Source: Dehalococcoidia bacterium
GTDB lineage: Bacteria > Chloroflexota > Dehalococcoidia > WHTO01
Length of the DNA stretch: 64,000 nt
Assembly (NCBI GenBank): GCA_040902555.1
Contig: JBBDXC010000010.1
Span: forward strand, 2,309-66,308
Reading direction: 5' to 3'
Position 1 is the first letter of the stretch; the number at the start of each line of letters is the position of its first letter. The notes below the pieces were generated by a model. It made no database searches. It saw only the letters and a list, made by a program, of their open reading frames with translations, and had not been told where the DNA came from. The position numbers and the translations under genes are program-made. Shown here one piece after another: positions 9,107-36,591 of the stretch.

Positions 9107-9188
9107 GCAGGCTGTCTCCGTGGGCGCCCTGCCTCCACGGGAGTCCTCCTGAGCTGAACCTTGACGCGGTAATCTCGCGGTTCCATGC

Positions 9189-10025
9189 TTGGAGCCATGT
9201 CAAACAGGTCCCCCACGCGGGGTCTTTCTCATACCGCCCGCAGCTCTTCTCCTTGCGATCGCGTTCGCCGGTTCGCAAGCGGAACCGGTTGAGACAGGCC
9301 CGTTCACCTATGTCAGGTCGTTTACAAGCACGGATGGCGCTGGGCCCAACAGCATGGGCACGCTCACGCTCACCTGCCTCCCGAGCGACGACATGCTCGG
9401 GGGTGGCTTCTTTGGCGTAGGACCGGGCACACACGTCCGCGCGAATCTGCCGCACTCCTTAAACCAGTGGAAGGTCTCGTGGCGGAACGACTCGACCGTC
9501 GACAGCGTCGGTATCCGGGTGCTGTGCATGTTCAAGGGAATCATCGGCGGCGACAAGTTCTTCGCTACGGAGTTCGGGCCGGGTAGCAGCATCGGCGCGA
9601 CGATGACGCTAAGCGCAGCCTGTGGTGACGGAGCGACCCTGCTCAGCGGTGGCTGGGACCTCCTCGACCCTGCAAGCTCGATTTCGGCCTCCAGGCCGGG
9701 AGCCGGTACGAAATGGCAGGTCAGTTGGCGAAACGGCGCCTCCCCCGACAACATCAAAGTCAGAGCATTTTGCTTCACCTCGTCGGGAGGGCCGAACCAT
9801 GTGCTCGAACAGGAAACCGGCAGGGGTGGGGCGGGGCCTGGAGAGGTCGGCGCGCTGACCACGGACTGCTCGGTGAGCATTCTGATCGGTGGCGGATTCT
9901 CCGGGCTGGCGCCTGGATTCCCGCTTATGACCAGCGGCCCTTATGACTCCAACAGCTGGCGCCAGCGCTGGCTGAACGGTCCGCTGGCCGATCAAGTGAC
10001 GAACTGGCTCGTCTGCCTGGATTAG
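9189..10025 (+). CDS. Hypothetical secreted protein with three tandem ~60-aa Cys-containing repeats
   Basis: 278-aa ORF; N-terminal signal-like segment (VFLIPPAALLLAIAFAGSQA); three internal repeats each with C...GGG[FW]...W[KQR]xxW[RL]N...C; no known domain recognised. Confidence 0.55.
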   Translation: MEPCQTGPPRGVFLIPPAALLLAIAFAGSQAEPVETGPFTYVRSFTSTDGAGPNSMGTLTLTCLPSDDMLGGGFFGVGPGTHVRANLPHSLNQWKVSWRNDSTVDSVGIRVLCMFKGIIGGDKFFATEFGPGSSIGATMTLSAACGDGATLLSGGWDLLDPASSISASRPGAGTKWQVSWRNGASPDNIKVRAFCFTSSGGPNHVLEQETGRGGAGPGEVGALTTDCSVSILIGGGFSGLAPGFPLMTSGPYDSNSWRQRWLNGPLADQVTNWLVCLD

Positions 10026-22322: not shown

Positions 22323-23339
22323 TCAGGCGAGGCGGATCACCTGGCCGAGGCGGGCCGATTCGTAGGCGGCGATGGCGACCGCGAGGCTGGCACGGCCCTC
22401 GCGACCGTCGACGAGCGGCCGCTCGCCGCCCTGGATCACGCGTATGAAGTGGACGTAGGGGTTGATGAATGCGCTCTTCTCGGGCAGATCCGGCACGACC
22501 TTGTTGACCCCGCCGGCGCCGGCGAGATAGACGACCAGCGGCTCTTTGCTGGACTGGCCCAGCACGGCACGCCCCTTCTCGCCCTGGATGACCATCTGCG
22601 TGTCCGGGAAGGGCCGAGCCGTCCACGAAGTTTGGAGACCGGCGATGACATCGCCCTCGAAGCGCATCAGGAGGAAGGCGTTGTCCTCGGCGAAGGTGGG
22701 CTTTTCGAGGCGCGCGGTCAGCGCGCTTACCTCGGTAACTTCTCTGCCGACGGTCCAGCGCAGAAGGTCGATCATGTGGATGCCGAGGTCGAGCAGAGCG
22801 CCGCCCCCCGCGGCCTCCTCGCGCCAGAACCAGTCGGAGCTGGCGCCCCAGGCTTCGTCGGGTCCGGCGTGCATGAAGCTGGCGCGGGCGCTCAGCACTC
22901 GACCGAGCGTTCCCTCGGCGACGATGCGCTGGAGCTCAGCGAAGAGGGGGATGAAGCGCAGGTTGTGGGCGACCATCAGGACGGTGCCCGCGCTCTCGGC
23001 GGCTGCCACCATGGCGTCGGCCTGCTCGAGGGAAACCGCCATTGGCTTTTCGACCAGGACGTGCTTGCCCGCTTGCGCGGCGGCGATGGCGATCGGTGCA
23101 TGCAGGGAATTGATCGTGCAGACGTCCACCGCATCGACAGTCGGGTCCGCGACAAGCTCCTCCCAGGTCTCGTAGACCTGTGGGACCTTGAACTCCGCGG
23201 CCGCGGAACGCGCTGAGTCGGCCCGGCCGCTGGCCAGCGCCACCACCTCGGTGTCTGGATCGGCACAGAGCGCAGGAAGATGGGCGCGGCGGGCGATCAG
23301 GCCGGTGCCGACGAGACCGATGCGGATCTTTGATGGCAT
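22323..23339 (-). CDS. Gfo/Idh/MocA family oxidoreductase
   Basis: Rossmann N-terminus (IRIGLVGTGLIARRAHLPAL) and EKP motif (VLVEKPMA); start taken as the internal ATG at 23339 (ORF track starts at 23471). Confidence 0.85.
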   Translation of the reverse strand: MPSKIRIGLVGTGLIARRAHLPALCADPDTEVVALASGRADSARSAAAEFKVPQVYETWEELVADPTVDAVDVCTINSLHAPIAIAAAQAGKHVLVEKPMAVSLEQADAMVAAAESAGTVLMVAHNLRFIPLFAELQRIVAEGTLGRVLSARASFMHAGPDEAWGASSDWFWREEAAGGGALLDLGIHMIDLLRWTVGREVTEVSALTARLEKPTFAEDNAFLLMRFEGDVIAGLQTSWTARPFPDTQMVIQGEKGRAVLGQSSKEPLVVYLAGAGGVNKVVPDLPEKSAFINPYVHFIRVIQGGERPLVDGREGRASLAVAIAAYESARLGQVIRLA

Positions 23340-23633
23340 AGAAGATGAGTGTGCAACCCTGAGATTTAGCGCGAAAGCAACGCCAACGGCGTGCGCGCGG
23401 CCAGAGTCTCCGCGAGAATTAGCGTGGCCCTCGGGAAGTGGCCCCGTCTCCCCGGTACTGTCTGACTCCACCGTCTTGGGGCTCTTGCGGTGGCTGTCAT
23501 GGTGCCGGCCGGGCGTCCACTTTACCGAGGGCCCTTTGCTTCGGGGCTCTCTGGGGCTCCTGAGCCTCTTTTCAGGGGCTCTCTTACTAGAGACGCAACA
23601 CCGCGCGCAAACTTGCGCCGCTTTCTCAGGAAT

Positions 23634-24431
23634 TTACAAAGCCCCGAGCCGCGCAAGAGCGGCTATCGGCGGGCGGGTCACGCGGTACTCCTCGGCGTAC
23701 TCGAGGCCATGGCGCCGGCCGGTGTCGGCAAGCCCCGCGCGCACGATGGCGGCCGCGATCGCGCCCAGGCTGGGTGTCCCCTGCAGCATCGGGACTTCCA
23801 TGTCCACCGTGGCTGCCTGCAGGCGCCATTGGTGGACCATGTGTCCAAGCATCGTCTCGTGTGAGGCGACCGCCGCGATGACCTTGTCGACCTGTCCTGA
23901 TACGTCGATAGGATCGGTGACCTCGAGGAGGCGCCGGGCGAAGTACCAACGCTCAAAGACCGCGTGGGGCGCCAGGCCCTCGGCGAAGTGTTCGGGGTGG
24001 TGCTTGTCGAACATCGATGTCCAGTAGGCCTCGTCGGCAGCCTGGGCGACCTTGATGTGGTCCTGGTTGTCCTCGTGGAAGGCGCCGTAGGGGTCGAACG
24101 ACATCACCGCGTAGGGCTTGTGCTTGCGGTAGAGGCGAATCAGCCGCTCGCGGAGCTCGACCTCGCTGGCGTCGCCGAGCGTATCGGTGACGTAGCCCAG
24201 CTCCTCGATCTGGTGGACGCCGAGGGCTGCCATGGCGGCCTGGAACTCCTGGGTGTTCCGCCGCTCCGTCTCAGCTTTGTCGAGACCCACCGAGTCTTTG
24301 TCATCGTTCGTGGCGCGCACTACGACTCTCCAGCCCTCCTCGGCCCAGCGGGCCACGCGGCCACCGCAGAAGAAGGCAACATCGTCGGCGTGGGCGACCG
24401 TGACGAGAGCGGTGCGCTCAGTCACGGACAC
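23634..24431 (-). CDS. PIG-L (LmbE-like) family N-acetylglucosaminyl deacetylase
   Basis: 265-aa ORF with the family motif near the N-terminus (LVTVAHADDVAFFCGG) and downstream His/Asp ligands; GTG start 3 nt after the DegT stop. Confidence 0.85.
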   Translation of the reverse strand: MSVTERTALVTVAHADDVAFFCGGRVARWAEEGWRVVVRATNDDKDSVGLDKAETERRNTQEFQAAMAALGVHQIEELGYVTDTLGDASEVELRERLIRLYRKHKPYAVMSFDPYGAFHEDNQDHIKVAQAADEAYWTSMFDKHHPEHFAEGLAPHAVFERWYFARRLLEVTDPIDVSGQVDKVIAAVASHETMLGHMVHQWRLQAATVDMEVPMLQGTPSLGAIAAAIVRAGLADTGRRHGLEYAEEYRVTRPPIAALARLGAL

Positions 24432-24434
24432 TCG

Positions 24435-25694
24435 CTAGAGGTAAGCGTGGGCGACCTTCCGCACGGATCGCACAATGTCGTCGACGTCCGCGTCTGTCAT
24501 CCGCGGGCCGACGGCGATGCCCACCGACCGGCCCAACAGGTCTTCACTGCGCGGACAGAGCCCCATGTAGTAGCGCCTGGCGGTCGGGTGCAGCTCGCAG
24601 TTGAACGGGCAGCCCTTCGACCACGGCGTCCGCTGCTCCAGCACCGCGGGATTCGCGTAAACAGGCTTGCCGCCGTAGATCTGGCCCGCCGGGATACCCT
24701 CGGCGCGCAAGGCTTTACCGAATTGGCGGGCCCCTGCTGCATCGCGGAGATAGAACGTGACGCTGCCACCCTCGCCCGCCTCATGCGGCAGAGTTCGCCA
24801 ATCAACCGGGATATCACCGAGGCGCTGCCTGATTTGGCGGGCCCTCTCGCGGCCGCTGGAGACGATTTCGTCCATCCTTCCCAGTTGCACTGAGGCGATG
24901 GCGCTGGCGATCTCCGTGATCCGCAGGTTCGTGCCGATGAAGGGGTCGCCGGAGCTGTGCTCCCTGACGTCGCCCTTCGAGGTAGTGAACTGACCGCCCT
25001 GGTCCTGGTACCGAACGGCCCGGTCGAAGACCTGGAAGTCGTTGGTGAGGAGGAAGCCGCCTTCACCGCTCGTTATGTTCTTTTCCAGCTGGAGGCTGAA
25101 GGCACCCGCGTCCCCGATGGTGCCGACCGGGCGTCCGCGGTAGCTGACGCCGGCGGCCTGTGCCGCGTCCTCAAGGACGCGGATGCCCCGGCGTTTGGCG
25201 ATCTCCATGATCGGGTCCATGTCGCAGGCCGCGTTGATCAGGTGGACAGGGACGACGGCTGTCGTCTTGTCTGTGATGTTCTCCTCGAACGACGCCGGGT
25301 CCAGGTTCAGAGACTCATCGACTTCGGCGAAGACCGGGACGGCCCGCGCGTTAACCACGGCGCCCACTGTCGCGATAAACGTGACCGCGGGGACAATCAC
25401 CTCGTCCCCCTCCTCGACGCCGAGCCCCACCAGCCCGGCCTGGAGCGCAGCCGTGCCGGAGCTCACAGCGACGGCATGCTCTACGGAGAAACGCTCGCGG
25501 AGCTCGGCCTCGAACCCGCCCGATTTGTCGAGGAACTCGGGGCCGTAGTAGCGGAAGAGCGACCGGCTCTTGAGGACCTCGACGGCTGCATTGAGCTCGT
25601 CGTCATCCAGGTAGCCAACACCGTGGGCGGTGTCGAACGATTCGCTGCGCACCGGCATGCCGCCGTTGAGGGCCAGGCGTTCGTCGTCTGCCAA
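24435..25694 (-). CDS. DegT/DnrJ/EryC1/StrS family PLP-dependent sugar aminotransferase
   Basis: 419-aa ORF; conserved DegT regions (AVSSGTAALQAGLVGLGV..., GDAGAFSLQLEKNITSGEGG). Confidence 0.9.
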   Translation of the reverse strand: MADDERLALNGGMPVRSESFDTAHGVGYLDDDELNAAVEVLKSRSLFRYYGPEFLDKSGGFEAELRERFSVEHAVAVSSGTAALQAGLVGLGVEEGDEVIVPAVTFIATVGAVVNARAVPVFAEVDESLNLDPASFEENITDKTTAVVPVHLINAACDMDPIMEIAKRRGIRVLEDAAQAAGVSYRGRPVGTIGDAGAFSLQLEKNITSGEGGFLLTNDFQVFDRAVRYQDQGGQFTTSKGDVREHSSGDPFIGTNLRITEIASAIASVQLGRMDEIVSSGRERARQIRQRLGDIPVDWRTLPHEAGEGGSVTFYLRDAAGARQFGKALRAEGIPAGQIYGGKPVYANPAVLEQRTPWSKGCPFNCELHPTARRYYMGLCPRSEDLLGRSVGIAVGPRMTDADVDDIVRSVRKVAHAYL

Positions 25695-27023
25695 TCAGCG
25701 CTCCTCGTAAAGCTCCCGCAGCGCATCGAGCGCGGCGTCTCTGACAAGCTTCTCTGAATCCTCGGCAAAGCGGGCAAAGCCGACTTCGTAGCCGCCGTTC
25801 GGGAACTCCTCGAGCGGTGGCACATAGCCGATGTAGTCGTTCGCGTACCCGCAGACCAGGAGGCGCTCGACCGGGGCGTCCCGCTCGAGACTCTCACGCG
25901 TGGCCACCAGGAACTCGCCGGGCAACGCGACCAGCGCGCAATTGGCCGACAGCCGAAACACCTGCACCTCAACCTCCCGGCGTTCCGGGGCTCGCAGCTG
26001 GTGGTAGGTCTGCTGCAGGCGCTCCATGGCCAGCTGGTTGATACGAGGCAGAAGCGGCCGGCGGCCTTTCTGGTCATCCGCGGGGAGCTCCGCAAGTGAC
26101 TTCTCCAGCTTTTCGATCTCCTCAACGATGTCGTCAAGGGGAGCCAGGTCCCGCTGTCGTAGTTCGACCCTGCGCACAGCAAAACCGAGGGATGCCATCT
26201 CCAGGACGCGACCGGTGATGGGCGGTTCAGGAATCTCCTCCGACCAGCTGAGGTTGATCCCCCACTGGCCGCGCCCGAGGGGCCGCATCTCCTGGACGGC
26301 GCGGGTGGCCGCGGCGCCGACTATGCCTCCAACGCGGTCTACGTCGTTGAAGTCGTGCGCCATCCAGACGGGATTCACGTCGCCGCAGCAGCCCTGGAGG
26401 TAGATGCCGACACCGCCGACGTTCCTCTCGACAAACGCGCAGGCGGCGCCGGGGAAATCGGCTGAGTATTCCATGTTGTCGTGTTCGAGGACAGTCGCGT
26501 GGCAGGCGTAATTGACCAACGTCGCGATGGGCATGCCGGTGTCCTCGTTCTCAGCGAGGAGGAGGTGAGCCTCGTGCTGCAGGCGCCCCGCGGGGTCGCG
26601 GCGATTCTGGGCAATGCTGTCCAGTGGCACTGTCGCCAGCTTGAGCACCGCGGGAACCGCGTCCGTACGCGCCTTGGCAATCGCCTGCATGACGGTATTC
26701 GCCGAGCGCTCCAGGTAATCGTCGAGGCGATGGCTGTAGACCACGCTTGGTCCCGAGTGGGTGTGCGTAGCGGCAACGCAAACGGCCGCGGCCGGAATAC
26801 CAAGCTCGCCCTCGATTCGCTGACGGACCCGGCGTACGAAGTGGTCTGGGACGCCGACGAAATCGCAGACGGCGATGGCGACTTCCTTGTCGCCGTCGCT
26901 CAGGCACAGCGTGCGGACCATGAGGTCGTCGTGCGTCCCCGTGGCCGTGCCCTGCCGCGCGCCGTAGCCGCCCATCGGCAGCCCCGGTGGCGGGGTCAGG
27001 GATTTGGCGGTGGCGCCGGCCAT
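25695..27023 (-). CDS. Neutral/alkaline ceramidase-like amidohydrolase
   Basis: Conserved N-terminal region of the neutral ceramidase family (LTPPPGLPMGGYGAR ... VAATHTHSGP); start taken at ATG 27023 (ORF track 27089). Confidence 0.8.
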   Translation of the reverse strand: MAGATAKSLTPPPGLPMGGYGARQGTATGTHDDLMVRTLCLSDGDKEVAIAVCDFVGVPDHFVRRVRQRIEGELGIPAAAVCVAATHTHSGPSVVYSHRLDDYLERSANTVMQAIAKARTDAVPAVLKLATVPLDSIAQNRRDPAGRLQHEAHLLLAENEDTGMPIATLVNYACHATVLEHDNMEYSADFPGAACAFVERNVGGVGIYLQGCCGDVNPVWMAHDFNDVDRVGGIVGAAATRAVQEMRPLGRGQWGINLSWSEEIPEPPITGRVLEMASLGFAVRRVELRQRDLAPLDDIVEEIEKLEKSLAELPADDQKGRRPLLPRINQLAMERLQQTYHQLRAPERREVEVQVFRLSANCALVALPGEFLVATRESLERDAPVERLLVCGYANDYIGYVPPLEEFPNGGYEVGFARFAEDSEKLVRDAALDALRELYEER

Positions 27024-27122
27024 CAGTACCAAGGGACGACTCTCATGCAAACCTGCTGAAAGACTGAGGGCGAAGCACGGCGAGCGCAATCACAGTGGGT
27101 TTTCGGCGTGCGACGCGCTGGG

Positions 27123-28679
27123 TCAGGGAAGGGGCAGGTCGGGGCCGTCCAGGAGGCCCCCGCCGTCGTCCTCAGGGCCCTCGCCGGGGTCGGGTGTTGT
27201 GTCTGTAACACCTTCGACCTCGTCCACGACGTCCTCGATAGCACTCACCTGTTCGTCGACGGCGTCAGTCAGGTCGTCGGCGGCGTCCTCAACTTCCGAT
27301 ACCACCTCATCGGCGGTGTCGCTCACTTCGTCAGTGGAAACTTCCGAGGACAGGTCACCGTGCGGCAGCTCCCCAACGAGCTCGGCTGAGTCATCAGCGG
27401 CGTCTTCGGAGGTGACCGTCTCGTCGCTCGTGCCTGGTCCATCAGGCTCGACAGCGTCGTCCGGCGAGGGCGAAGCAACGGAGGTTTCGGGCGGCGGGGA
27501 GGCCGGCTCAGACCCCTGGGCCGCCGCTACGTCCTCGCCTGCCCCATGAAGGACCCGGCCGGGCACAGGCGAAATAGTCATTAGGTCGATGCTGACGCCT
27601 CGGCGGTCGACCCGTATTGTGTCGGCGCCCGCTGAGGATGACGTGGCAGCGACGTCGGCACGGTCGCTGGCGGCCTCCAGAGCCGTTTCGGCAGTAATGC
27701 CGCCGGCTGAGCTGTCGTTGGTGACAGCGGCCACGCCGACCACGGTGATTACAGCACCCGCGCCGACAACCGCGACCGCCGAACCGACGGCGGTGGCGCT
27801 GGTCGCAGCCACGGTGCCACCGGCCTTGGCCAGCCCGGCGGACAGCCGCTTGGCGAGGCCGGCGATAGTGGTCCCCAAAGAAAAACCAGGGAGGAGCAGG
27901 GGCGGCAGGAAGCCATGCCAACTGGCGCCCATCTTGTCCTGTACGACCCGGCAACGTGAACAGAGGTCGAGGTGGGTCAGGACGCGCACGCGCCGGCGGT
28001 CGCTGAGCGTCCCGGCGGATAGCCCCCTGAGGTGGGCCCGCATCTTGTAGCAGGCCAGGTTGTCGGAAGCCTGGACCCCGCTGAGCACGGAGTCGAAGTT
28101 GCGATGGAAGTTGGAGCGCGCGCGGTAGAGGAGCGTCTCGACAGCCGACAGGGACTGGCCAAGCCTTTCAGCGATCGCGCAGTAGCTCTTGCCCTCTATC
28201 CAGCGCAGGCGCAGGACTTCTCGCTGCCGGTCCGGTAGCTGCTTGAGGGCGGTGCTGGCGGCGCGGCGGCGCTCATTGAGCTCGGCGATGTCGTAGGGGT
28301 CATCGACGGCCTCGAGCTGGCTTTCGTCGGATTCGTCGAGGTAGACGGCGCGGCGGGTGGGCTCTCTCAGTACGCTGCGGCCGCAGTTGCGGGCTATCGT
28401 GGCAAGCCAGGAGAAGAAAGCTTCGGGGCGATCAAGGTCAGCGAGGCGCTGGTAGGCCTTGAGCCAGGCATCCTGAGCCGCGTCGTCCGCGATCTCAGGA
28501 GGGAGCGACATGCGGAGGCCGGCGAGCAACCTATCGTTGTAGCGCTCATAGAGGCGGCGGTAAGCCCCGTCATCGCCAGCTCTCACTGCTCTGACGAGCT
28601 CGGCCGCCGCCAGGAGTTCCGGTTCGGCCTCTTTTACCATTGGCCGGCCTCTCGCCGGGTTGTCAGCATCTGCACTCAA
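27123..28679 (-). CDS. ECF sigma factor fused to a ZAS-type anti-sigma domain, with TM segment and acidic C-terminal tail
   Basis: 518-aa single ORF. N-terminal ~190 aa has sigma-70 regions 2 and 4 (YRRLYERYNDRLL..., DRQREVLRLRWIEGKSYCAIAERLGQSLSAVETLLYRAR). Then HxxxCxxC zinc-finger motif (LTHLDLCSRC), a Gly/Ala/Val-rich hydrophobic stretch, and an Asp/Glu-rich tail. Confidence 0.8.
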   Translation of the reverse strand: MSADADNPARGRPMVKEAEPELLAAAELVRAVRAGDDGAYRRLYERYNDRLLAGLRMSLPPEIADDAAQDAWLKAYQRLADLDRPEAFFSWLATIARNCGRSVLREPTRRAVYLDESDESQLEAVDDPYDIAELNERRRAASTALKQLPDRQREVLRLRWIEGKSYCAIAERLGQSLSAVETLLYRARSNFHRNFDSVLSGVQASDNLACYKMRAHLRGLSAGTLSDRRRVRVLTHLDLCSRCRVVQDKMGASWHGFLPPLLLPGFSLGTTIAGLAKRLSAGLAKAGGTVAATSATAVGSAVAVVGAGAVITVVGVAAVTNDSSAGGITAETALEAASDRADVAATSSSAGADTIRVDRRGVSIDLMTISPVPGRVLHGAGEDVAAAQGSEPASPPPETSVASPSPDDAVEPDGPGTSDETVTSEDAADDSAELVGELPHGDLSSEVSTDEVSDTADEVVSEVEDAADDLTDAVDEQVSAIEDVVDEVEGVTDTTPDPGEGPEDDGGGLLDGPDLPLP

Positions 28680-29115
28680 GAATACTCAGCCGGCCGGCGC
28701 AAGTTTCGGCGCGCCAGACGTATCTCTACCTCGAAAGCCGCGAACGCCCTGCGCTGCGATGAAATCTCAACGCGAGCCCTGCTGCTGTAACGGTTTTGTT
28801 ACGCGCAGTCGGGGAAACATTCGCTCAGCCGGTTCGCCGGAAGCTCCGCTCCCAGCAACCTGGGCACGGTTCTCATGGTCGCGGGAGCGGTACAGGATGC
28901 TCCCCCATGGAGATCGGCCCTTTCTATTCCCGCAGCAAGCGAGGCTTGGTCGAAAGGCCGCGACTAAACCTGTCGCCCTCATCCCTGAAGCTTTCTCAAT
29001 CACCTTTGAGGAGCCCTGGTGCGACCAACCCCGCCTGCCAGATCTCTCGCCGCCTGGGCTCGGCCCAACAACGGCTTCGCATACCCCAGCGAAATCGCCT
29101 CTTACCGGGCGAGCG

Positions 29116-29197
29116 GACAAACAAGTCAAACAACTCAAACAAACCAACAACTCGCTGGCGAATCTGAAATGGATGCCGCGCCCTTCAAACAATTCAT
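29116..29197 (+). repeat. AC-rich ~80-nt conserved element, copy 1 (upstream of LVIVD-like gene)
   Basis: GACAAACAAGTCAAACAACTCAAACAAACCAACAACTCGCTGGCGAATCTGAAATGGA...TCAAACAATTC; near-identical to the reverse complement of 36509-36591. Confidence 0.7.
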
Positions 29198-29325
29198 CCT
29201 CTCAACCAGCGCAAGTTTTGGCGGGGATTGTGAGTCTCTAAGGAAAGACCACGCGCCGCGTTGCAAACTGTTCGCCTTTCGACTGGTATTGCAAATTGAA
29301 AGGCAGCACGAGAAGGAGTTCGAGG

Positions 29326-30990
29326 ATGGACCATCGAGCTAGAGAACTGTTTGGCGGGGAGGCTTCGACCTTTCCGCTGCGGCGATGGGCGCCGGTTGCC
29401 GTGGCCTTTGTCGCGCTGGTCGTCGGCGTCGTGGCTTCCGCGAGCAGCGTGTTTGGCCACGGTGGTCCTAGCGAAGATGGCTCCGACCCCCTGCGAAACA
29501 CGCCGTTGCCTTGCGAGGTGGTCAACACGCCGGGCCTCACGGCCCGCTCGGCCAACGGCATCGAGCACGTTGCCAACGTCTGCGGCTTCGTCGGCACCGA
29601 CATCGAGTTCCAGTCGCGAATGGCCAATGACGGCGTCCACGATTACGCGTTCGTCGGGACGATGGGCGCCGGAATGCGAATCTATGACATCACCGACCCG
29701 ACAACGCCGACATTCGCCGGGGGCTACGCGGACCCGGGCTGGGAGAATGACATCCAGGTCGAGGGCCACCTTGCGGTTGCTACCTTCGACGGACTCGTGG
29801 GCGAGGACTCCTCAGCTTCAACTTGCCTGAAGGAGCGTTACCCGGACGCAATGGGGCAGGGCGTCGATGTGTACGACCTGGAGTACGACGCGGCTACGGC
29901 GCTATTCAACGTGGTGCTGCTGACCTGCGTGGCGAACCCACCGGGTGGCGCACACAACGTCACATTGAACCCGCGTTCCCAGTGGATGGCCATCTCCAAC
30001 TGCTGTTCCGACTGGGCGATGGATGTCATCGACCTTCGCCGTATCGAGAACAACAGCTCCCGGACGAGTGGAACGGCGCCCGATGCCAAGCACATCTATC
30101 GGCTGATCGATGCCTCGCAGAGGGATTCGTCGACATGTCCGGCCGGGGCGACCTACAGGTGCGTCGTCATCAAGAAGCCGAACGGCACCAACGCCACCGG
30201 GCTCTGGCAGCCTCACGACGTGCACTTCTCGCGCAACGGCAAGACAGCTTACGTGGCGGCGATCAATTCGACGTTCATCATCGACGTCAGCCGGGTATTC
30301 GAGGGCGTAGTCAAAACGATTGCCATCATTCCTAACATCTCGGAGCCCGGTGGCTTCGCCAGCCGGCACAACATTGACATCTCGCACCAGGCGGACGTGA
30401 CCGCGGACGGCAAGATCCTGGTCATCTCGGATGAGCGGGGCGGCGGCCTGACCGACCAGAACTGCAATGTCGAGGCCGGCGACGAGCTGGTCGGAGGCCT
30501 GCACTTTTGGGCCCTCGCCGAGATCAACGGCGTTGCCGCCTCGCGCGGGGCGTCGCCCTCCAACCCCAAGAAGCTTGGCGTCTACGTCAATCCCAACCCG
30601 AACGACCTGGGGGCGGACCCGCTGCAGCCGGCGCTGGATCTTCTCCCGCGCTTCACCTCGGGCTGCACAGTGCACGTGTTCCGCATCGGGCGCAACGGCA
30701 CGGCTTCGCCAGACGCGGCGGAGATTGAATTCGGCGGTGTCTCCAGCCTGAGTCAGCGCCAGCTGACGACGGCCTGGTACGGCGCGGGCGTGTGGTGGAT
30801 CGACTTCTCGGGCCGGCCAGACCGCAAGGCCGGTGACACCATCCGGGAGAGCACGGAGACTACGTGGGGCAACACGCTCGGTTGGAATGTGATGCCTGGT
30901 GCAAGCACGTGGGCGGCCAAGGAGTACAAGGGCTACATCTTCGCCTCGGATATTACGCGCGGCTTCGACGTTTACCGCTTTGCGGACTGA
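29326..30990 (+). CDS. Secreted beta-propeller protein (LVIVD-repeat-like)
   Basis: ATG at 29326 preceded by GAAGGAG; N-terminal TM/signal segment (WAPVAVAFVALVVGVVASASS); repeated blade-like motifs (HDYAFVGTMGAGMRIYDITDP, GLWQPHDVHFSRNGKTAYVA, GYIFASDITRGFDVYRF). Confidence 0.7.
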   Translation: MDHRARELFGGEASTFPLRRWAPVAVAFVALVVGVVASASSVFGHGGPSEDGSDPLRNTPLPCEVVNTPGLTARSANGIEHVANVCGFVGTDIEFQSRMANDGVHDYAFVGTMGAGMRIYDITDPTTPTFAGGYADPGWENDIQVEGHLAVATFDGLVGEDSSASTCLKERYPDAMGQGVDVYDLEYDAATALFNVVLLTCVANPPGGAHNVTLNPRSQWMAISNCCSDWAMDVIDLRRIENNSSRTSGTAPDAKHIYRLIDASQRDSSTCPAGATYRCVVIKKPNGTNATGLWQPHDVHFSRNGKTAYVAAINSTFIIDVSRVFEGVVKTIAIIPNISEPGGFASRHNIDISHQADVTADGKILVISDERGGGLTDQNCNVEAGDELVGGLHFWALAEINGVAASRGASPSNPKKLGVYVNPNPNDLGADPLQPALDLLPRFTSGCTVHVFRIGRNGTASPDAAEIEFGGVSSLSQRQLTTAWYGAGVWWIDFSGRPDRKAGDTIRESTETTWGNTLGWNVMPGASTWAAKEYKGYIFASDITRGFDVYRFAD

Positions 30991-31022
30991 ACGGCGATCG
31001 CGACCGAACACAAAGGGGCGCC

Positions 31023-31055
31023 CCAGGGGCGCCCCTTCTCCGTCTTCTCGATAAT
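31023..31055 (+). terminator. Rho-independent terminator after LVIVD-like gene
   Basis: 25-nt near-perfect palindrome AAGGGGCGCCCC-A-GGGGCGCCCCTT followed by a pyrimidine/T-rich tract. Confidence 0.55.
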
Positions 31056-31063
31056 CGAACGCG

Positions 31064-31970
31064 ATGGACGCCGAACGCGTTGCCTACAAGGGCTGGCCGA
31101 GCTGCTGGAGACTTTCCGATGGGCGCCTTGAGGTCATCGTCACGACCGATATTGGGCCGCGAGTCATGTTCTTCGGCTTTGCCGGCGGCGCCAACGAGTT
31201 CGGGGAAATAGAAGCGACGCTCGGGCATACCGGCGGCGACGAGTGGAAGCCCTATGGCGGACACCGCCTCTGGCACGGGCCCGAGGCCATGCCCCGGAGC
31301 TACCAACCGGACAACGAGCCGCTGGAGGCCCAGGTCAGTGGTGGAGTGGCAACGCTCACGCAGAGGACAGAGGCGGCGACCTGTATCCAGAAGGAGATCG
31401 AGATCAGCTTCGCGGCCGGCGGCGTGGTGGTAAGACACCGCCTCCACAACCGGAACCTCTGGCCGGTCGAGCTGGCCGCCTGGGGAGTGACGATCATGAC
31501 GGCCGGCGGGCAGGCCATCATCCCTCTAGGCCGCTGGGGCGCCCACGGCGAGAACCTGGCCGCTCGCAGCACGGTGTCGCTCTGGGCCTATACGGATATG
31601 ACGGACCCCCGCTGGTCGTTGGGCCGCGACTTTCTCCGCCTCAGGCAGGACAGCGGTAACGGCGAGCCCCAGAAGGCCGGCGCGTACGTGGACGAGGGTT
31701 GGGCGGCGTATGAACGGGGGCGGCCACCTGTTCGTGAAGCGCTTCGATGTCGTGAGTGGCGGCCGCTACCCGGACCTCGGCTGCTCTGTGGAGGTCTTCA
31801 CGAAAGGTGAGGTGCTGGAGCTGGAGACCTTGGGGCCGCTGACCGTGGTCGAGCCCGGCAGAGTGGTTGAGCACGTCGAGCGCTGGTACCTGTTCGAGGG
31901 CCTGGGGGCGTGCGACAGCGAGGAGCAGGTGGCGGGTGAAGTCCTGCCCAGGGTGAGAGAAACGTCATAG
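31064..31970 (+). pseudogene. Hypothetical protein split by a +1 frameshift at a G5 run (frameshifted gene or assembly error)
   Basis: ORF 31064..31810 (248 aa) and ORF 31710..31970 (86 aa) overlap in adjacent frames; the switch maps to GGGGG at 31716-31720; the second ORF has no RBS of its own. Confidence 0.5.
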
Positions 31971-32021
31971 CCTGTCGGAGGATGGCGGCGGAAGGTGGAA
32001 CCGCTAAACTAGAGCACGCGT

Positions 32022-32098
32022 GGGCGATTAGCTCAGTTGGCTAGAGCGCTTGCTCGACACGCAAGAGGTCACTGGTTCAAGTCCAGTATCGCCCACCA
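32022..32098 (+). tRNA. tRNA-Val (anticodon GAC)
   Basis: Cloverleaf by eye: acceptor GGGCGAT/ATCGCCC, D-arm GCTC...GAGC, anticodon stem CTTGC/GCAAG with loop TCGACAC, T-arm with GGTTCAAGTCC, encoded CCA. Confidence 0.9.
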
Positions 32099-32198
32099 CC
32101 TTTTGAATCTGCGTTCGGGGCATTTGGCGCGGCCGTCCATCGCCCGAAGGTGCCACTGCGGTGCCTATTCGCGAGAACCGGGCACCAGGTGCATCAGT

Positions 32199-32274
32199 GG
32201 GGACATAGCTCAGCCGGGAGAGCGCTGCGTTCGCATCGCAGAGGTCGGGGGTTCGAATCCCCCTGTCTCCACCA
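32199..32274 (+). tRNA. tRNA-Ala (anticodon CGC)
   Basis: Acceptor GGGGACA/TGTCTCC with G3:U70, anticodon stem CTGCG/CGCAG with loop TTCGCAT, T-loop GGTTCGAATCC, encoded CCA. Confidence 0.9.
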
Positions 32275-32325
32275 CCCCCCTGCTCGGATGGCCGCCAACG
32301 CTGGCTAAGATAGACCTTGTTCGGT

Positions 32326-32402
32326 GCCCCCGTAGCTCAGGTGGATAGAGCAACGGTTTCCTAAACCGTGTGTCGGGTGTTCGAGTCACCCCGGGGGTAC
32401 CA
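32326..32402 (+). tRNA. tRNA-Arg (anticodon CCT)
   Basis: Acceptor GCCCCCG/CGGGGGT, anticodon stem ACGGT/ACCGT with loop TTCCTAA, T-arm GGGTG-TTCGAGT-CACCC, encoded CCA. Confidence 0.85.
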
Positions 32403-33024: not shown

Positions 33025-35346
33025 TTAATGGGGCAAAGGCGGGCTGACAGTAACACCAGCCGCAGCCAGACGCTCAAGATCCGCACCACGTCCGATCTCC
33101 TCGAGGATCTCGGCGGTGTGCTCGCCCAGCAGCGGCGCCACCCGCTGGATGACGCCGGGGGTTTTCGACAGGCGGAAGAGGAGGCCTGTTTGGGTGATTT
33201 GGCCGAGCTCAGCGTGGTGGCCGCTCGCGAGCAGGTCGTTGGCGGCAACCTGGGGGTCGTTGAAGAGGTCGAGGGGCGAGCGGAGGCGGGCACAGGGAAC
33301 CCCGACGCCGTCGAGAAGGCGTTCCGCATTCTTTGAGTCGAGGCCGGCGAGTACGGCGCTTACTGTGGTCGCATCGCTCCGCTCGGGACCGGAGAAACGG
33401 GCGGTAGCGAAGTCCTGTAACGCAAGGCCGAGCGCAGACCCTAAAGCCTCCCAATGGCTCGCTTCGCGGCAGGCTACGAAGAGCCAGTGATCGCCCGCGC
33501 AGCGATAGGCCCGGTAGCCCGGCCAGGGCCCTTTGGCTTCCGATGGTAAGGTGCGGGGTTCAGGAACTCCCTGGCCGAAGAGGAACTGGCCGGACTGGGC
33601 GGCCATCGTGGAGTTGGTCAGCGAGAGGCGGACGTGAGAGCCCTCACCGGTCTTCTCGCGCATCCAAATGGCCGCCAGCGCGCCGAAGGCATTAAGCATG
33701 CCGGCGGCGTGGTCGGACAGCGGCACAGCGAAGAAGACCGGGTCGCCGTCGCCGCCCTGGGCGGCCATTGCGCCCGACCGCGCCTGCAGCAGAGGATCGA
33801 AGGCCGGACGCTCGGCCAGCGGTCCCGTAAAGCCATTACCGACAACGCTGACGTAGACCAGGCGCGGATTGACCGCCTTGAGCGACTCATAGTCGACGCC
33901 GAGCCTCTGGGTGACGCCGGGGCGGTAATTCTCCACGAGCACGTCCGCGCCGCGGACGAGGTCAAGCAGTATCTCCTTGCCCTCAGGGCTGCGCAGGTCG
34001 AGGCCGATGCTGCGTTTACCACGGTTCCAGCCCAGGAAGCCGACAGCCATCTGGCGGAAAGGCTCGCCCTGCACCGGCTCAATCTTGATGACGTCGGCGC
34101 CCAGGTCGGCCAGCATCATTGGGCCAAGCGGGCCGGCGATGTAGAACGACAGATCAAGCACGCGCAGACCATCCAGTGGACTCTTGAGACCACGAGCAGC
34201 TTGCGCCCCTGGTCTGAGCTGCACCCCTGACCAGATTTCCTCGATCGCCCTCTCTCTTGGCACCGGCGCAGCCTTCTTGACGACCGGCTCGTCGGTACCG
34301 ACGCGGATCGGGACGCCCATCTGCACTGTTGGGCCGAGGACTGGGTCGTCGACCTCGACGCGCATGCCATTGGCGATCACCTGCGGGTCATCGATGAAGG
34401 CGCGCCGAGAGCCGACCTGGGCGGCCGGGACGTCCGATGCATCGAAGATGCTCAGCCACTCGCCACAGGGCTTCGAAGCGATGGCCTCGCCGATTACGGC
34501 CACCAGCGCCGCCCGGTAATCGGGAGCGACGACGCCCCAGGGGGCGTTTTGGAAGCGTTCATCGCCGACAAGCTCTGGTCGCTCGATGGCTATCGCCATC
34601 TTGTTGAAGAAGACATTGTTGCCGCAGGCCAGGAAAATCCACTCGCCGTCGGCGCACTGGTAGAGGCGATAGGCCGGGACGGCGCCAAGCGGGAAGCCAC
34701 GGGCCAGCGTGAGGCGCATGACAGCACCTTCGAGGGCGTTGACGAGGCTGCCGGTGGTCATCGCCAGGGCGCCGGCCAGCCAAGACACCTCAACGGTCTG
34801 CCCTCGACCGGTCGTTCGGCGTGCGAGTAGCGCGGCCATGGCCGCAATAGCACCCAGGAAGGCGGCGCCATAGCTCGCGAAGGGTAGCGTCAGGTAGACG
34901 GGCTCCAGGCTGGCGCTCGGCTGACCTTCGAGTAGGCCCGCGGCCGCGGCGGCCAGGGCATCATCCGCGAAGCGGCCGGCGTCGGGGCCGCGCGAACCCA
35001 AGGGCGGCAGCCAAAGGTGAACAAGGTGAGGATGTCTCGTGGCGATCTCGTCGGCATCCAGGCTGGCGGGCGCGGCACGTGGGAGGTAGCTGGTCACGAG
35101 CACGTCGGCGCATTGCAGCAGTCGTTCGAGCCGTTGCCGATCCTCACTACTTTCGAAGTCGACAAGGCAACCATCCTTGCTGCGGTTCCAGACGTGGAAG
35201 CCGGGGAGGCGCCGGCCGGGATCGCCCGACGGCGCGAGCTCGACCTTGACGACATCGGCGCCCTGCTCCGCGAGCAGCATCGTCGCGTAGGGGCCGGCGA
35301 TCTCCTCGCTGAGGTCGACGACGCGCAGGCCTTCCAGAGGCAGCAT
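33025..35346 (-). CDS. CoA-transferase family III (CaiB/BaiF) protein with two tandem complete transferase domains
   Basis: Two copies of the family N-terminal signature (LEGLRVVDLSEEIAGPYATMLLAEQGADVVKVE and LDGLRVLDLSFYIAGPLGPMMLADLGADVIKIE); start taken at ATG 35346 (ORF track 35385). Confidence 0.85.
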   Translation of the reverse strand: MLPLEGLRVVDLSEEIAGPYATMLLAEQGADVVKVELAPSGDPGRRLPGFHVWNRSKDGCLVDFESSEDRQRLERLLQCADVLVTSYLPRAAPASLDADEIATRHPHLVHLWLPPLGSRGPDAGRFADDALAAAAAGLLEGQPSASLEPVYLTLPFASYGAAFLGAIAAMAALLARRTTGRGQTVEVSWLAGALAMTTGSLVNALEGAVMRLTLARGFPLGAVPAYRLYQCADGEWIFLACGNNVFFNKMAIAIERPELVGDERFQNAPWGVVAPDYRAALVAVIGEAIASKPCGEWLSIFDASDVPAAQVGSRRAFIDDPQVIANGMRVEVDDPVLGPTVQMGVPIRVGTDEPVVKKAAPVPRERAIEEIWSGVQLRPGAQAARGLKSPLDGLRVLDLSFYIAGPLGPMMLADLGADVIKIEPVQGEPFRQMAVGFLGWNRGKRSIGLDLRSPEGKEILLDLVRGADVLVENYRPGVTQRLGVDYESLKAVNPRLVYVSVVGNGFTGPLAERPAFDPLLQARSGAMAAQGGDGDPVFFAVPLSDHAAGMLNAFGALAAIWMREKTGEGSHVRLSLTNSTMAAQSGQFLFGQGVPEPRTLPSEAKGPWPGYRAYRCAGDHWLFVACREASHWEALGSALGLALQDFATARFSGPERSDATTVSAVLAGLDSKNAERLLDGVGVPCARLRSPLDLFNDPQVAANDLLASGHHAELGQITQTGLLFRLSKTPGVIQRVAPLLGEHTAEILEEIGRGADLERLAAAGVTVSPPLPH

Positions 35347-35406
35347 CAGCGCAGCACCTCTCCCCCTGGCACCGTCTCCGTCCACCGAGAAGGGGACATG
35401 GGCCTG

Positions 35407-36508: not shown

Positions 36509-36591
36509 GAGTTGTTTGATGGCCGCAGGGTTCATCTCAGATTCGCCAGCCAGTTGTTGGTTTGTTTGAGTTGTTTGACTTGTTTGATCCT
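36509..36591 (-). repeat. AC-rich ~80-nt conserved element, copy 2 (upstream of Fe-ADH-like gene)
   Basis: Reverse complement reads GATCAAACAAGTCAAACAACTCAAACAAACCAACAACTGGCTGGCGAATCTGAGATGAA...TCAAACAACTC; about 51 of 53 core nt identical to copy 1. Confidence 0.7.

Follow-up and report, generated by a model that had tools for sequence, protein, structure and literature searches.

Sigma and anti-sigma functions of the split pairs SigW-RsiW, SigL-RslA, and SigE-ChrR are encoded by two translationally coupled genes, and RsiW and RslA carry a single transmembrane (TM) helix behind the anti-sigma domain. In a 64,000-nucleotide stretch of Dehalococcoidia DNA (the window, meaning the whole stretch analyzed), the same two modules and zinc motif are instead covalently joined in one polypeptide, with a linker of ~3 residues between the sigma domain and the anti-sigma domain. 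This raises the questions of whether the fusion is genuine and, if so, how a sigma factor attached to its own anti-sigma domain might be activated. The original prediction described a 518-aa protein of unusual layout that heads a lipid/aminosugar operon.

Gene extent and start codon

As predicted, the reading frame is uninterrupted, running from 28679 to 27123 on the minus strand and specifying 518 aa if counted from TTG, and the hybrid is likewise a single CDS in GenBank. The length of 518 aa requires correction. Every ortholog starts at the position of M14 in the alignment, and the TTG at 28679 sits in an upstream motif that is noncoding in the orthologs. GenBank protein MEX2237020.1, from a Dehalococcoidia metagenome-assembled genome (MAG), has exactly the 505-aa sequence, and the protein collection searched has no entry for the 518-aa form; the gene was therefore assigned to 27123..28640 (Table 1). 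The TTG was rejected as a start on the grounds of the ortholog starts, the noncoding alignment, and the identity with MEX2237020.1. These comparisons indicate that the true start is almost certainly ATG 28640 and that positions 28641 to 28679 are most likely 5' untranslated; a GAGAGG Shine-Dalgarno-like site lies within this segment, 8 nt before the ATG. Residue numbers given here follow the 518-aa numbering, from which 13 is subtracted for the 505-aa protein. GC3 is uniform over the entire ORF (0.64 to 0.88).

Table 1. Features of the sigma/anti-sigma hybrid gene and its surroundings (positions in the window)
Feature	Position	Strand	Basis or remark
GFO/IDH/MocA sugar or inositol dehydrogenase	22323-23471	-	Pfam/NCBIfam, synteny
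PIG-L/BshB-like deacetylase	23634-24431	-	Pfam/NCBIfam, synteny
DegT-family sugar aminotransferase	24435-25694	-	Pfam/NCBIfam, synteny
Ceramidase-N-like hydrolase	25695-27089	-	Pfam/NCBIfam scans; true start probably near 27022-27031
Spacer between sigma gene and ceramidase-like gene	27023..27122	-	No terminator-like site; TGATTGCGCTCG at 27081-27092
Sigma/anti-sigma hybrid gene	27123..28640	-	505 aa + stop; ATG 28640 by ortholog alignment and exact GenBank match
Extracytoplasmic tail (aa 323-518)	27126..27713	-	Predicted; acidic, low complexity, no recognizable domain
Single transmembrane helix (aa 296-322)	27714..27794	-	Predicted; Gly/Ala/Val-rich, core AVAVVGAGAVITVVGVAAV
Juxtamembrane linker (aa 257-295)	27795..27911	-	Conserved LP..P motif; basic K277, R278, K285
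Class I anti-sigma domain, ZAS type (aa 204-256)	27912..28070	-	Predicted; invariant ligands, zf-HC2, PDB matches, AF2 helices
Putative Zn ligand C243	27951-27953	-	
Putative Zn ligand C240	27960-27962	-	
Putative Zn ligand H236	27972-27974	-	
Putative Zn ligand C210	28050-28052	-	
Sigma-70 region 4 (aa 140-188)	28116..28262	-	PF08281 Sigma70_r4_2, 49.4 bits; PF04545, 42.6 bits
Sigma-70 region 2 (aa 43-105)	28365..28553	-	PF04542 Sigma70_r2, 33.3 bits (cutoff, 24 bits)
13 codons added by TTG start	28641..28679	-	Aligns to noncoding ortholog DNA
Upstream region conserved with orthologs	28641..28800	-	Alignment; conserved block CTGAGTATTCTTG at 28677-28689

Sigma factor domain

The N-terminal part is an ECF (group 4) sigma-70 factor with the predicted regions 2 and 4. 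Pfam matches to Sigma70_r2, Sigma70_r4_2, and Sigma70_ECF (aa 26 to 195) all exceed their cutoffs, and the score for NCBIfam model TIGR02937 is 85.9 bits (cutoff, 42.9), which passes the threshold of a curated ECF model; regions 1 and 3 gave no match in the Pfam scan of the protein. The family profile matches AlgU, RpoE, and SigW with E values of 1e-34 to 1e-40. AF2 models region 2 with a pLDDT of >90 and region 4 with a pLDDT of >95, and a Foldseek search of the PDB matched ECF sigma chains, with the sigma fold alone recovered.

Anti-sigma domain and zinc site

By its sequence, the module that follows is the zinc-binding (ZAS) subtype of class I anti-sigma domain, with a putative zinc site. 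All four ligands of the pattern C210-x25-H236-x3-C240-x2-C243 are invariant, whether 6, 18, or 133 sequences are aligned. Its last three ligands form the HxxxCxxC motif that had been recognized in LTHLDLCSRC, of which composition alone would produce 5.5e-4 occurrences in the protein. The class I anti-sigma zinc signature is defined as Hx3Cx2C spanning helices 2 and 3, with a further Cys or His ligand ahead of it in helix 1 (PMC7406223). AF2 predicts three helices (pLDDT 78 to 89) that carry C210 (helix 1), H236 (end of helix 2), and the CxxC (start of helix 3), and the agreement of this placement with the definition supports the anti-sigma assignment. The Pfam family zf-HC2 scores 20.9 bits in the full-length scan, slightly below its cutoff of 22.2, and 25.6 bits for the isolated segment; of 30 family members, 13 match the model. 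Among PDB entries, ChrR ranks first in a single-sequence phmmer search (E = 1.4e-3), and RsiW, ChrR, and RslA are matched weakly by the profile (E = 0.035 to 0.07), for which the top match is a spurious repeat match to collagen IV. Taken with the ORF, its conservation in orthologs, and the GenBank call, these results bear out the prediction of a sigma factor and a ZAS-type anti-sigma domain in one polypeptide.

The extension might not be an inhibitor at all, but a zinc-binding helical module that, together with the TM helix, has a structural, tethering, or activating role, as in ECF41, ECF42, and CorE-type proteins; extensions of other ECF groups do activate (PMC8999054). At the sequence level, the module only marginally resembles solved anti-sigma domains, and two AF2 models (aa 14 to 330 and aa 14 to 262, each from a 133-sequence alignment) combine confident single domains with a pTM of only 0.41 and 0.45, such that the module is not confidently docked on the sigma domains. 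Foldseek superpositions on sigma chains have an rmsd of 12 to 16 Å. Nevertheless, the best PDB matches besides collagen IV are all anti-sigma proteins, the Pfam family matched is an anti-sigma zinc finger, and helix topology and ligand placement suit a class I anti-sigma domain. Furthermore, for a Gemmatimonadales relative of the sigma factor, a ZAS anti-sigma partner is encoded by a gene of its own in the collinear position. We therefore regard a noninhibitory extension as decidedly improbable and an inhibitory anti-sigma domain as the better reading.

Membrane helix and acidic tail

The anti-sigma domain is connected to the membrane by a linker in which P259 is almost invariant across 133 sequences. 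The first AF2 model places a low-confidence helix here, a possible anti-sigma helix 4. The predicted Gly/Ala/Val-rich hydrophobic segment was recovered, with a Kyte-Doolittle maximum of 2.47. Charges ahead of it are mainly positive (five K+R versus one D+E), and the predicted acidic tail is evident behind its core, where 199 aa contain 52 D/E versus 5 K/R and 17 Pro. From this charge distribution, the tail is predicted to be outside the cell and both the sigma part and the anti-sigma part in the cytoplasm.

Within the tail, the last 118 residues contain 40 D/E and no K/R. It is the most acidic of the 132 tails compared; every tail of its clade is acidic, and net negative tails constitute 26% of those compared, its own clade included. 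No Pfam domain, carbohydrate-binding modules included, was detected in the tail at E values up to 0.1, and the tail is probably disordered. Its C terminus is hydrophobic and weakly conserved, LL..(P)DLP.

Conservation of the fusion

Sigma domain, HxxxCxxC motif, and TM helix occur in one ORF in five orthologs with 44 to 55% identity, which derive from independent assemblies (ENA, NCBI, JGI, and Logan). Among 134 distant homologs, HxxxCxxC follows the sigma domain in 132, and in at least 127 there is also a TM helix behind the motif. The search of related genomes that the original prediction proposed has thus recovered the same fusion. A large family with ~30% identity and a shared layout is present in Thermoleophilia/Solirubrobacterales. 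A scan of GTDB species representatives returned just distant sigma-only matches (≤35% identity), and the Streptomyces loci from that scan encode split sigma/anti-sigma pairs of the ordinary kind rather than ECF52.

When the anti-sigma domain and TM helix were used as a query, only 10 proteins were found among 1.84e9 representatives. Three of these (P0139, P0140, and P0142) are multistretch or doubtful matches. The other seven clearly belong to the same family, and in all of them the match follows a sigma domain: in six it lies at approximately aa 184 to 311 of proteins 408 to 654 aa long, and in the seventh (P0135), whose N terminus is cut within region 4, it still follows sigma sequence.

The split form exists in the Gemmatimonadales relative (locus L002), in which the sigma gene (7980-8561) and the ZAS anti-sigma gene (8558-9286) share a 4-nt overlap, and we take this pair to favor an origin of the hybrid by gene fusion. 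It also shows how an artefact could arise, as one frame change would fuse such genes, and the protein examined here comes from a MAG; a 1-nt assembly or sequencing indel could have merged overlapping sigma and anti-sigma genes. An error of this kind would, however, have to recur in the five independently assembled orthologs and in >120 distant homologs with a continuous ORF. At the protein level, the orthologs share the junction SNFH..LSG..ACYK, no conserved internal start codon is present (the residue aligned with M214 varies among V, I, and M), and GC3 is even along the ORF. An artefact is thus of negligible probability and was rejected on the strength of the conserved single ORF and the uniform GC3; comparative sequence evidence confirms the fusion as genuine.

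Neighboring genes and upstream region

Four genes follow on the same strand (22323..27089), with orthology and synteny established by comparison with ortholog contigs L057, L055, and L059-61. Gene scans agree with the predicted ceramidase-like, DegT, and PIG-L genes. The ceramidase assignment is weak and concerns the N-terminal domain only (53 bits in Pfam; 32.7 bits for the NCBIfam equivalog versus a cutoff of 1200 bits). The sigma, ceramidase-like, and DegT genes remain linked in all ortholog contigs that cover the downstream side (L057, L059-61, and, in interrupted form, L055), and no terminator-like site was found in the 33- to 100-nt spacer between the sigma and ceramidase-like genes in the window. 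In L055, two opposite-strand genes lie between the sigma gene and the cluster, and cotranscription is therefore not obligatory. The predicted operon is partly upheld, by a conserved linkage and a spacer without a terminator-like site in the window, but the interruption in L055 and the weak ceramidase match count against its stronger form. No TonB-dependent receptor gene is found among the neighbors, and the conserved neighborhood has no thiol-stress genes.

In the orthologs, a tRNA-Arg gene ends ~135 nt before the sigma ATG, and the promoter must therefore fall within 28641..28800. This leader matches no Rfam family; it contains the conserved block CTGAGTATTCTTG, with GAAAC 14 nt upstream of it. 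The original prediction anticipated a cognate promoter upstream of the sigma gene and its neighbors, an expectation that the searches did not bear out: no sigma-70 consensus promoter was matched in the 22.0- to 29.4-kb part of the window, no ECF-type promoter was found upstream of the sigma gene or its neighbors, and GGAAC-type -35 boxes are present in only three of five orthologs. Elsewhere in the window, the conserved upstream block CTGAKTANNCTYG showed no enrichment (5 matches versus 2.0 expected), and no regulon could be defined. An exact match to TGATTRCGCTCG occurs once in the window, in the spacer between the sigma and ceramidase-like genes, and the 16 matches with ≤2 mismatches do not differ significantly from the 11.8 expected. 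The spacer site TGATTGCGCTCG is one mismatch off the ortholog sigma-upstream motif (~0.003 chance per 100 nt), and it lacks a conserved counterpart ahead of the orthologous ceramidase-like genes.

The AC-rich element noted near the sigma gene does lie upstream, at 29118-29195. Both copies of this element are directly upstream of other genes and in the orientation of those genes; the first belongs to a divergent LVIVD-repeat gene and the second precedes another gene. The element was therefore rejected as a partner of the sigma gene.

Comparison with known hybrids

The layout is less unusual than originally predicted, as the same design is already represented by ECF48, ECF52 (SCO4117), ECF53, and IutY. 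ECF48, ECF52, and ECF53 have a fused zinc finger and TM region, for which a proteolytic model has been proposed (PMC8999054, PMC5826349, PMC7593790). In ECF48 and ECF53, the C-terminal extension, which can reach ~400 residues and contains a probable ZAS finger plus one or two TM helices, is predicted to be a fused anti-sigma factor under proteolytic control (PMC8999054). The ~320-aa extension described here, with one zinc finger and one TM helix, has this layout, a likeness drawn from architecture descriptions, as for ECF52. The Thermoleophilia/Solirubrobacterales family may correspond to ECF48 or ECF53, judging from sequence layout. These relatives belong to another phylum than the hybrid, and the spacing of their first ligand is mostly x22, versus x25 here.

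ECF52 (SCO4117 of Streptomyces coelicolor) shares with the hybrid an ECF sigma domain, zf-HC2, one or more TM helices, and a long extracytoplasmic extension. Its tail is proline rich and ends in a carbohydrate-binding module, whereas the tail here is acidic and domain free, and its gene neighborhood is unlike this locus. Activation of ECF52 has been proposed to involve proteolytic release or a conformational change (PMC5826349, PMC8999054). Truncations of SCO4117 indicate that the sigma domain is functional; processing was not demonstrated (PMC5826349). IutY of Pseudomonas putida (ECF243) likewise combines sigma and membrane-spanning anti-sigma functions in one protein, but it is a FecI-FecR-type fusion of a diderm that works with a TonB-dependent receptor, whereas the hybrid has a ZAS class I domain and no FecR domain in the Pfam scan. 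The IutY hybrid is processed by Prc (site 1) and RseP (site 2), the only release shown experimentally (PMC8999054, PMC7593790). IutY and SCO4117 are the only fused proteins with experimental characterization of any kind.

Zinc-finger hybrids are described as confined to Actinobacteria, and ECF52 as exclusive to that phylum. This restriction does not extend to the present protein, as MEX2237020.1 and the GcvPA protein MEX2237014.1 come from the same Dehalococcoidia MAG, and the orthologs share synteny with another Dehalococcoidia MAG. Since the hybrid layout has been described in Actinobacteria, the Chloroflexota (Dehalococcoidia) protein is a new member from a new lineage and not a system of a new kind; it adds modestly to the range known for the design and reveals no new principle. 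Its modest novelty lies in the Chloroflexota clade, the domain-free acidic tail, and the conserved linkage to ceramidase-like and DegT genes.

Proposed activation mechanism

The two mechanisms suggested originally, proteolytic release and intramolecular inhibition, coincide with those proposed in the literature for such proteins. On balance, we favor as fairly probable a one-protein signaling device of the known type (ECF sigma with a fused anti-sigma extension) that would inhibit itself and be freed by proteolysis. Its steps were inferred by homology with the split pairs RpoE-RseA, SigE-ChrR, and SigW-RsiW and the fused proteins ECF52 and IutY. In the resting state, sigma regions 2 and 4 would be bound by the anti-sigma domain of the same chain, and this binding and the membrane tether would keep the sigma factor from joining RNA polymerase. 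Site-1 trimming would be triggered by an envelope signal that the acidic tail senses or that acts on this tail, and would be followed by a site-2 cut inside the helix-weak Gly/Ala-rich TM segment. The new Ala/Val-rich C terminus would then be degraded by cytoplasmic proteases to free active sigma. In the split SigW system, RsiW is removed by regulated intramembrane proteolysis, after which ClpXP acts on the exposed Ala-rich end. The hybrid has indirect features of an intramembrane-proteolysis substrate, a single type II Gly/Ala-rich TM helix and a conserved hydrophobic C terminus. Likely targets would be the promoter of the hybrid gene itself (within 28641-28800), together with the ceramidase-like, DegT, PIG-L, and dehydrogenase genes of the conserved neighborhood, and the nature of these neighbors suggests remodeling of envelope glycolipids or aminosugars.

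The zinc site could alternatively serve as a redox or zinc switch that operates without proteolysis, as in RsrA and RslA, with thiol oxidation or zinc loss freeing the sigma domain in cis, the tethered sigma recruiting RNA polymerase, and the TM helix and tail providing localization only. All four ligands are invariant, and the clade spacing, Cys-x25-His-x3-Cys-x2-Cys, is that of RsrA (C11, H37, C41, and C44), whereas the wider family has mostly Cys-x22; membrane-tethered transcription regulators such as ToxR and CadC also exist. However, redox-sensing ZAS proteins are mostly soluble, and a purely cytoplasmic sensor would hardly explain the conserved TM helix and the long, clade-specific acidic tail. 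The conserved neighborhood also lacks thiol-stress genes. [quoted passage not shown] A switch of this kind is improbable, and under the favored model of proteolytic release the zinc site is more likely to be structural, as in RsiW, than a redox sensor.

A Dehalococcoidia clade of fused sigma factors

The window protein, P0001 to P0005, P0135 to P0138, and a few others form what we term the "ACYK" clade, with ~10 representatives among 1.84 billion proteins; every clear member is fused. It is conceivable, though rather unlikely, that this clade is a separate, unclassified ECF group with an RsrA-like fused ZAS domain and an acidic disordered tail as sensor, which controls the conserved cluster and possibly combines thiol or zinc input with proteolytic release. 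If so, the tail could sense cations, pH, or surface charge of a monoderm/S-layer envelope, and the sigma factor would control a cluster of ceramidase-like, aminosugar, and inositol-modifying genes.

Fused sigma/anti-sigma proteins represent "one-component systems" among sigma factors. The present locus is a compact candidate for studying the removal of a covalently attached anti-sigma domain, in a hybrid gene that stays linked to apparent envelope sugar or lipid modification genes.

Gene identity and start codon

The minus-strand ORF (28679..27123) is present as a single uninterrupted frame holding sigma regions 2 and 4 and HxxxCxxC, as originally predicted, and encodes 518 aa when counted from TTG. 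This TTG start was not borne out. The residue aligned with M14 is the first residue in five of five orthologs, the upstream block containing TTG 28679 corresponds to non-coding DNA of the orthologs, and a GAGAGG site lies 5' of ATG 28640. The 505-aa ATG form matched GenBank MEX2237020.1 ([quoted passage not shown]) at every letter in a protein collection search, and the 518-aa form had no entry in that collection. The entry lies on a 148,861-bp MAG contig that also carries MEX2237014.1, to which the neighboring GcvPA is 100% identical. These findings place the gene at 27123..28640 and assign it to a Dehalococcoidia MAG. Residue numbers follow the 518-aa count (minus 13 for the 505-aa form).

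MEX2237020.1 belongs to a “90% identity” cluster represented by a 50-aa hypothetical protein of Synechococcus, and the sequence was therefore missing from the initial homology search. This placement is probably a clustering artifact of the low-complexity acidic tail.

Features of the fused protein and its surroundings
Feature	Position	Strand	Remark
Sigma70_r2	aa 43-105		Pfam
Sigma70_r4_2	aa 140-188		Pfam
Sigma70_ECF			Pfam
Hydrophobic (TM) segment	aa 296-322		C-terminal of zinc motif; Kyte-Doolittle 2.47
Ceramidase-N-domain-like hydrolase	gene 1 downstream	same as sigma	weak: Pfam 53 bits; 32.7 versus 1200-bit NCBIfam equivalog cutoff
DegT-family sugar aminotransferase	gene 2 downstream	same as sigma	
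PIG-L/BshB-like deacetylase	gene 3 downstream	same as sigma	
GFO/IDH/MocA dehydrogenase	gene 4 downstream	same as sigma	
GcvPA, GcvPB	genes 5-6 downstream	same as sigma	
AC-rich element copy 1	29118-29195	+	ends ~100 nt before LVIVD-repeat gene
LVIVD-repeat protein	29296-30990	+	within extra ~3.2 kb
248-aa ORF	31064-31810		no family; within extra ~3.2 kb
AC-rich element copy 2	36509-36586	-	ends ~45 nt before 352-aa gene (start 36465, -)

A genuine sigma/anti-sigma fusion

The sigma assignment is supported by the NCBIfam ECF superfamily model TIGR02937 (85.9 bits versus a cutoff of 42.9), and GC3 is high throughout the ORF. The motif H236-x3-C240-x2-C243 holds, with C210, three of the five cysteines of the protein, and 5.5e-4 such motifs would be expected from composition alone.

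Sigma domain, zinc motif, TM segment, and tail occur within one ORF in five orthologs (44 to 55% identity) from ENA, NCBI, JGI, and Logan assemblies, and the sigma/anti-sigma junction SNFH..LSG..ACYK is conserved among them. A profile search recovered a large family of ECF proteins of 350 to 720 aa, most of which are unnamed or belong to Solirubrobacterales, Thermoleophilales, or other Actinomycetota. HxxxCxxC lies C-terminal of the sigma domain in 132 of 134 retrieved proteins, 127 of which also have a TM segment after it, and C210, H236, C240, and C243 are invariant in a 133-sequence alignment. With only the anti-sigma and TM part (aa 197-330) as query, a search of 1.84 billion representative proteins gave just 10 matches. 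Seven are clearly family members, and the match follows a sigma domain in every one: six matches lie at about aa 184-311 of proteins 408 to 654 aa long, and the seventh, P0135, has an N terminus cut within region 4. The remaining matches, to P0139, P0140, and P0142, are doubtful or span several stretches. In the ortholog alignment, no internal start codon is conserved. The original prediction named a read-level indel as the finding that would undo the fusion; because the one-ORF layout is kept in five orthologs and at least 127 of 134 homologs, without a conserved internal start, that question is answered without reads. By sequence comparison, the fusion is genuine.

The C-terminal extension

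The predicted ZAS-type motif does follow the sigma regions: Pfam zf-HC2 matched the isolated segment (25.6 bits versus a threshold of 22.2), with the full-length scan just under (20.9 bits), and matched 13 of 30 family members. In a single-sequence search of PDB sequences, the sole matches were to the ZAS anti-sigma factor ChrR (E = 1.4e-3). The family profile gave weak matches to RsiW, ChrR, and RslA (E = 0.035 to 0.07), below a spurious collagen match. AF2 placed three helices in the extension (pLDDT 78 to 89), with C210 on helix 1, H236 closing helix 2, and CxxC opening helix 3, in agreement with the helix placement that defines the Hx3Cx2C signature of class I anti-sigma domains (PMC7406223). 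Models of aa 14-330 and aa 14-262 had excellent domain confidence but a pTM of only 0.41 and 0.45; they neither support nor refute docking of the domain on sigma regions 2 and 4 in cis. Foldseek recovered only ECF sigma chains, the best from sigma/anti-sigma complexes (rmsd 12 to 16 Å). Ligand spacing is Cys-x25-His, as in RsrA, versus Cys-x22-His in most of the wider family. A Gemmatimonadales relative (sigma domain 30% identical) has the classical split form, with sigma (L002 7980-8561) and ZAS anti-sigma (8558-9286) genes overlapping by 4 nt; the module order of the fused protein is thus that of an ordinary gene pair. The evidence is consistent with an anti-sigma domain, but not strong.

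The stretch before the TM segment is basic (K+R 5 versus D+E 1), and the tail is acidic (52 D/E versus 5 K/R over 199 aa; 40 D/E and zero K/R in the final 118 residues), a charge distribution that fits a cytoplasmic N terminus and an external C terminus. No domain was found in the tail by Pfam scan; a weakly conserved hydrophobic C terminus, LL..(P)DLP, is visible in the ortholog alignment. Tails are acidic in every member of the close “ACYK” clade but net-negative in only 26% of 132 compared, among which this tail is the most acidic. The clade relatives P0135, P0136, and P0137 have long extracytoplasmic tails of acidic Cys-rich tandem repeats (e.g., CEDQDPNTEGCQ and PTCETDPLLCP), whereas the tail described here is acidic and Cys-free.

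Comparison with known systems

Published work already recognizes a category of ECF sigma factors that carry a fused anti-sigma extension (PMC8999054, PMC5826349, PMC7593790). In actinobacterial ECF48, ECF52, and ECF53, this extension reaches up to about 400 aa and includes one or two TM helices together with a probable ZAS zinc finger; activation by proteolysis is predicted, and SCO4117 (ECF52) has been characterized in part (PMC8999054, PMC5826349). Processing by Prc and RseP was demonstrated for IutY, a FecI-FecR hybrid (PMC8999054, PMC7593790). Compared with these published descriptions, the protein shares the fused-extension architecture of ECF48/52/53 but lies outside Actinobacteria and lacks the proline-rich, carbohydrate-binding tail of ECF52. 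It is a genuine sigma/anti-sigma hybrid of known design in Chloroflexota; the newer aspects are this host, the unusually acidic sensor tail, and the conserved linkage to sugar/lipid-modifying genes.

Most likely, the fused anti-sigma domain would inhibit sigma in cis at the membrane at rest, regulated proteolysis would relieve this inhibition, and the zinc site would be structural. The architecture is close to certain; proteolytic release, taken singly, is an even call, and the combined statement of architecture and proteolytic relief is somewhat favored.

Downstream linkage

The order sigma, ceramidase-like, DegT recurs in ortholog locus L057 (53% and 74% identity for the ceramidase-like and DegT proteins) and probably in L059-61, whose contigs stop after the ceramidase-like start, before DegT. 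In L055, two opposite-strand genes break the arrangement. No terminator-like site was found in the spacer between the sigma and ceramidase-like genes. The gene was proposed to head a ceramidase-DegT-PIG-L operon: these genes do follow on the same strand and the linkage is conserved, but, given the L055 interruption, co-transcription is not obligatory.

TTAAATG(G/A)AAG.CATG is conserved 5' of the ceramidase-like genes in L055 (7576-7635), L057 (1322-1392), and L059 (1667-1741) and is absent from the window. Its TTAAAT resembles a -10 box, and its position would give a leaderless mRNA beginning at or close to the second ATG.

Upstream region

Gene order in the orthologs is CoA-transferase, tRNA-Val, tRNA-Ala, tRNA-Arg, sigma. 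Because tRNA-Arg ends ~135 nt before the ATG and the homologous 160 nt is retained in the window alignment, the sigma promoter must lie within 28641-28800. No consensus promoter or Rfam family match was found upstream of sigma, and the sole clear feature is a conserved block, CTGA(T/G)TA..CT(C/T)G, with G(G/A/C)AAC 14 nt further upstream in three of five sequences. A near-copy, TGATTGCGCTCG, lies in the sigma/ceramidase-like spacer (27081-27092, minus strand; ~0.003 chance per 100 nt), one mismatch from TGATTACGCTCG, the conserved block that the orthologs have 25 to 30 nt 5' of the sigma start. In the window, the copy upstream of sigma itself, TGAGTATTCTTG (28677-28688), is more degenerate, and TGATTGCGCTCG is not conserved in the orthologs' spacer. 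As a hint only, TGATTGCGCTCG may represent either chance or a promoter or operator element that is shared.

In L056 (4305-4797) and L058 (1334-1827), the tRNA trio of Val(gac), Ala(cgc), and Arg(cct) sits between the CoA-transferase gene and sigma, immediately 5' of the latter. In the corresponding part of the window (28800-32402), the trio is at 32022-32402, reversed in order and orientation relative to sigma, and ~3.2 kb of extra DNA separates it from sigma. The difference represents a rearrangement or insertion specific to this lineage, adjacent to tRNA genes. GC dips to about 0.63 at 28-30 kb and 32-34 kb.

The 78-nt AC-rich element (CAAACAAGTCAAACAACTCAAACAAACCAACAAC...) occurs twice in inverted orientation, with 88% complementarity between copies separated by 7.3 kb, and each copy is oriented toward its own downstream gene. 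Each also contains an ATG from which a short ORF runs (24 and 34 aa), and the first residues of the two are alike (MDAAPFKQF and MNPAAIKQL). The element resembles a leader or regulatory sequence common to both genes. Copy 1, noted originally as opposite the sigma gene, is indeed upstream of it but points to the LVIVD-repeat gene, with no visible connection to sigma in the window.

Further upstream, 33025-35385 (minus strand) encodes a 786-aa protein in which two CoA-transferase family III domains stand in tandem. Its 755-aa counterpart in a second Dehalococcoidia MAG (L056 1963-4230) is syntenic and shares 64% identity with it.
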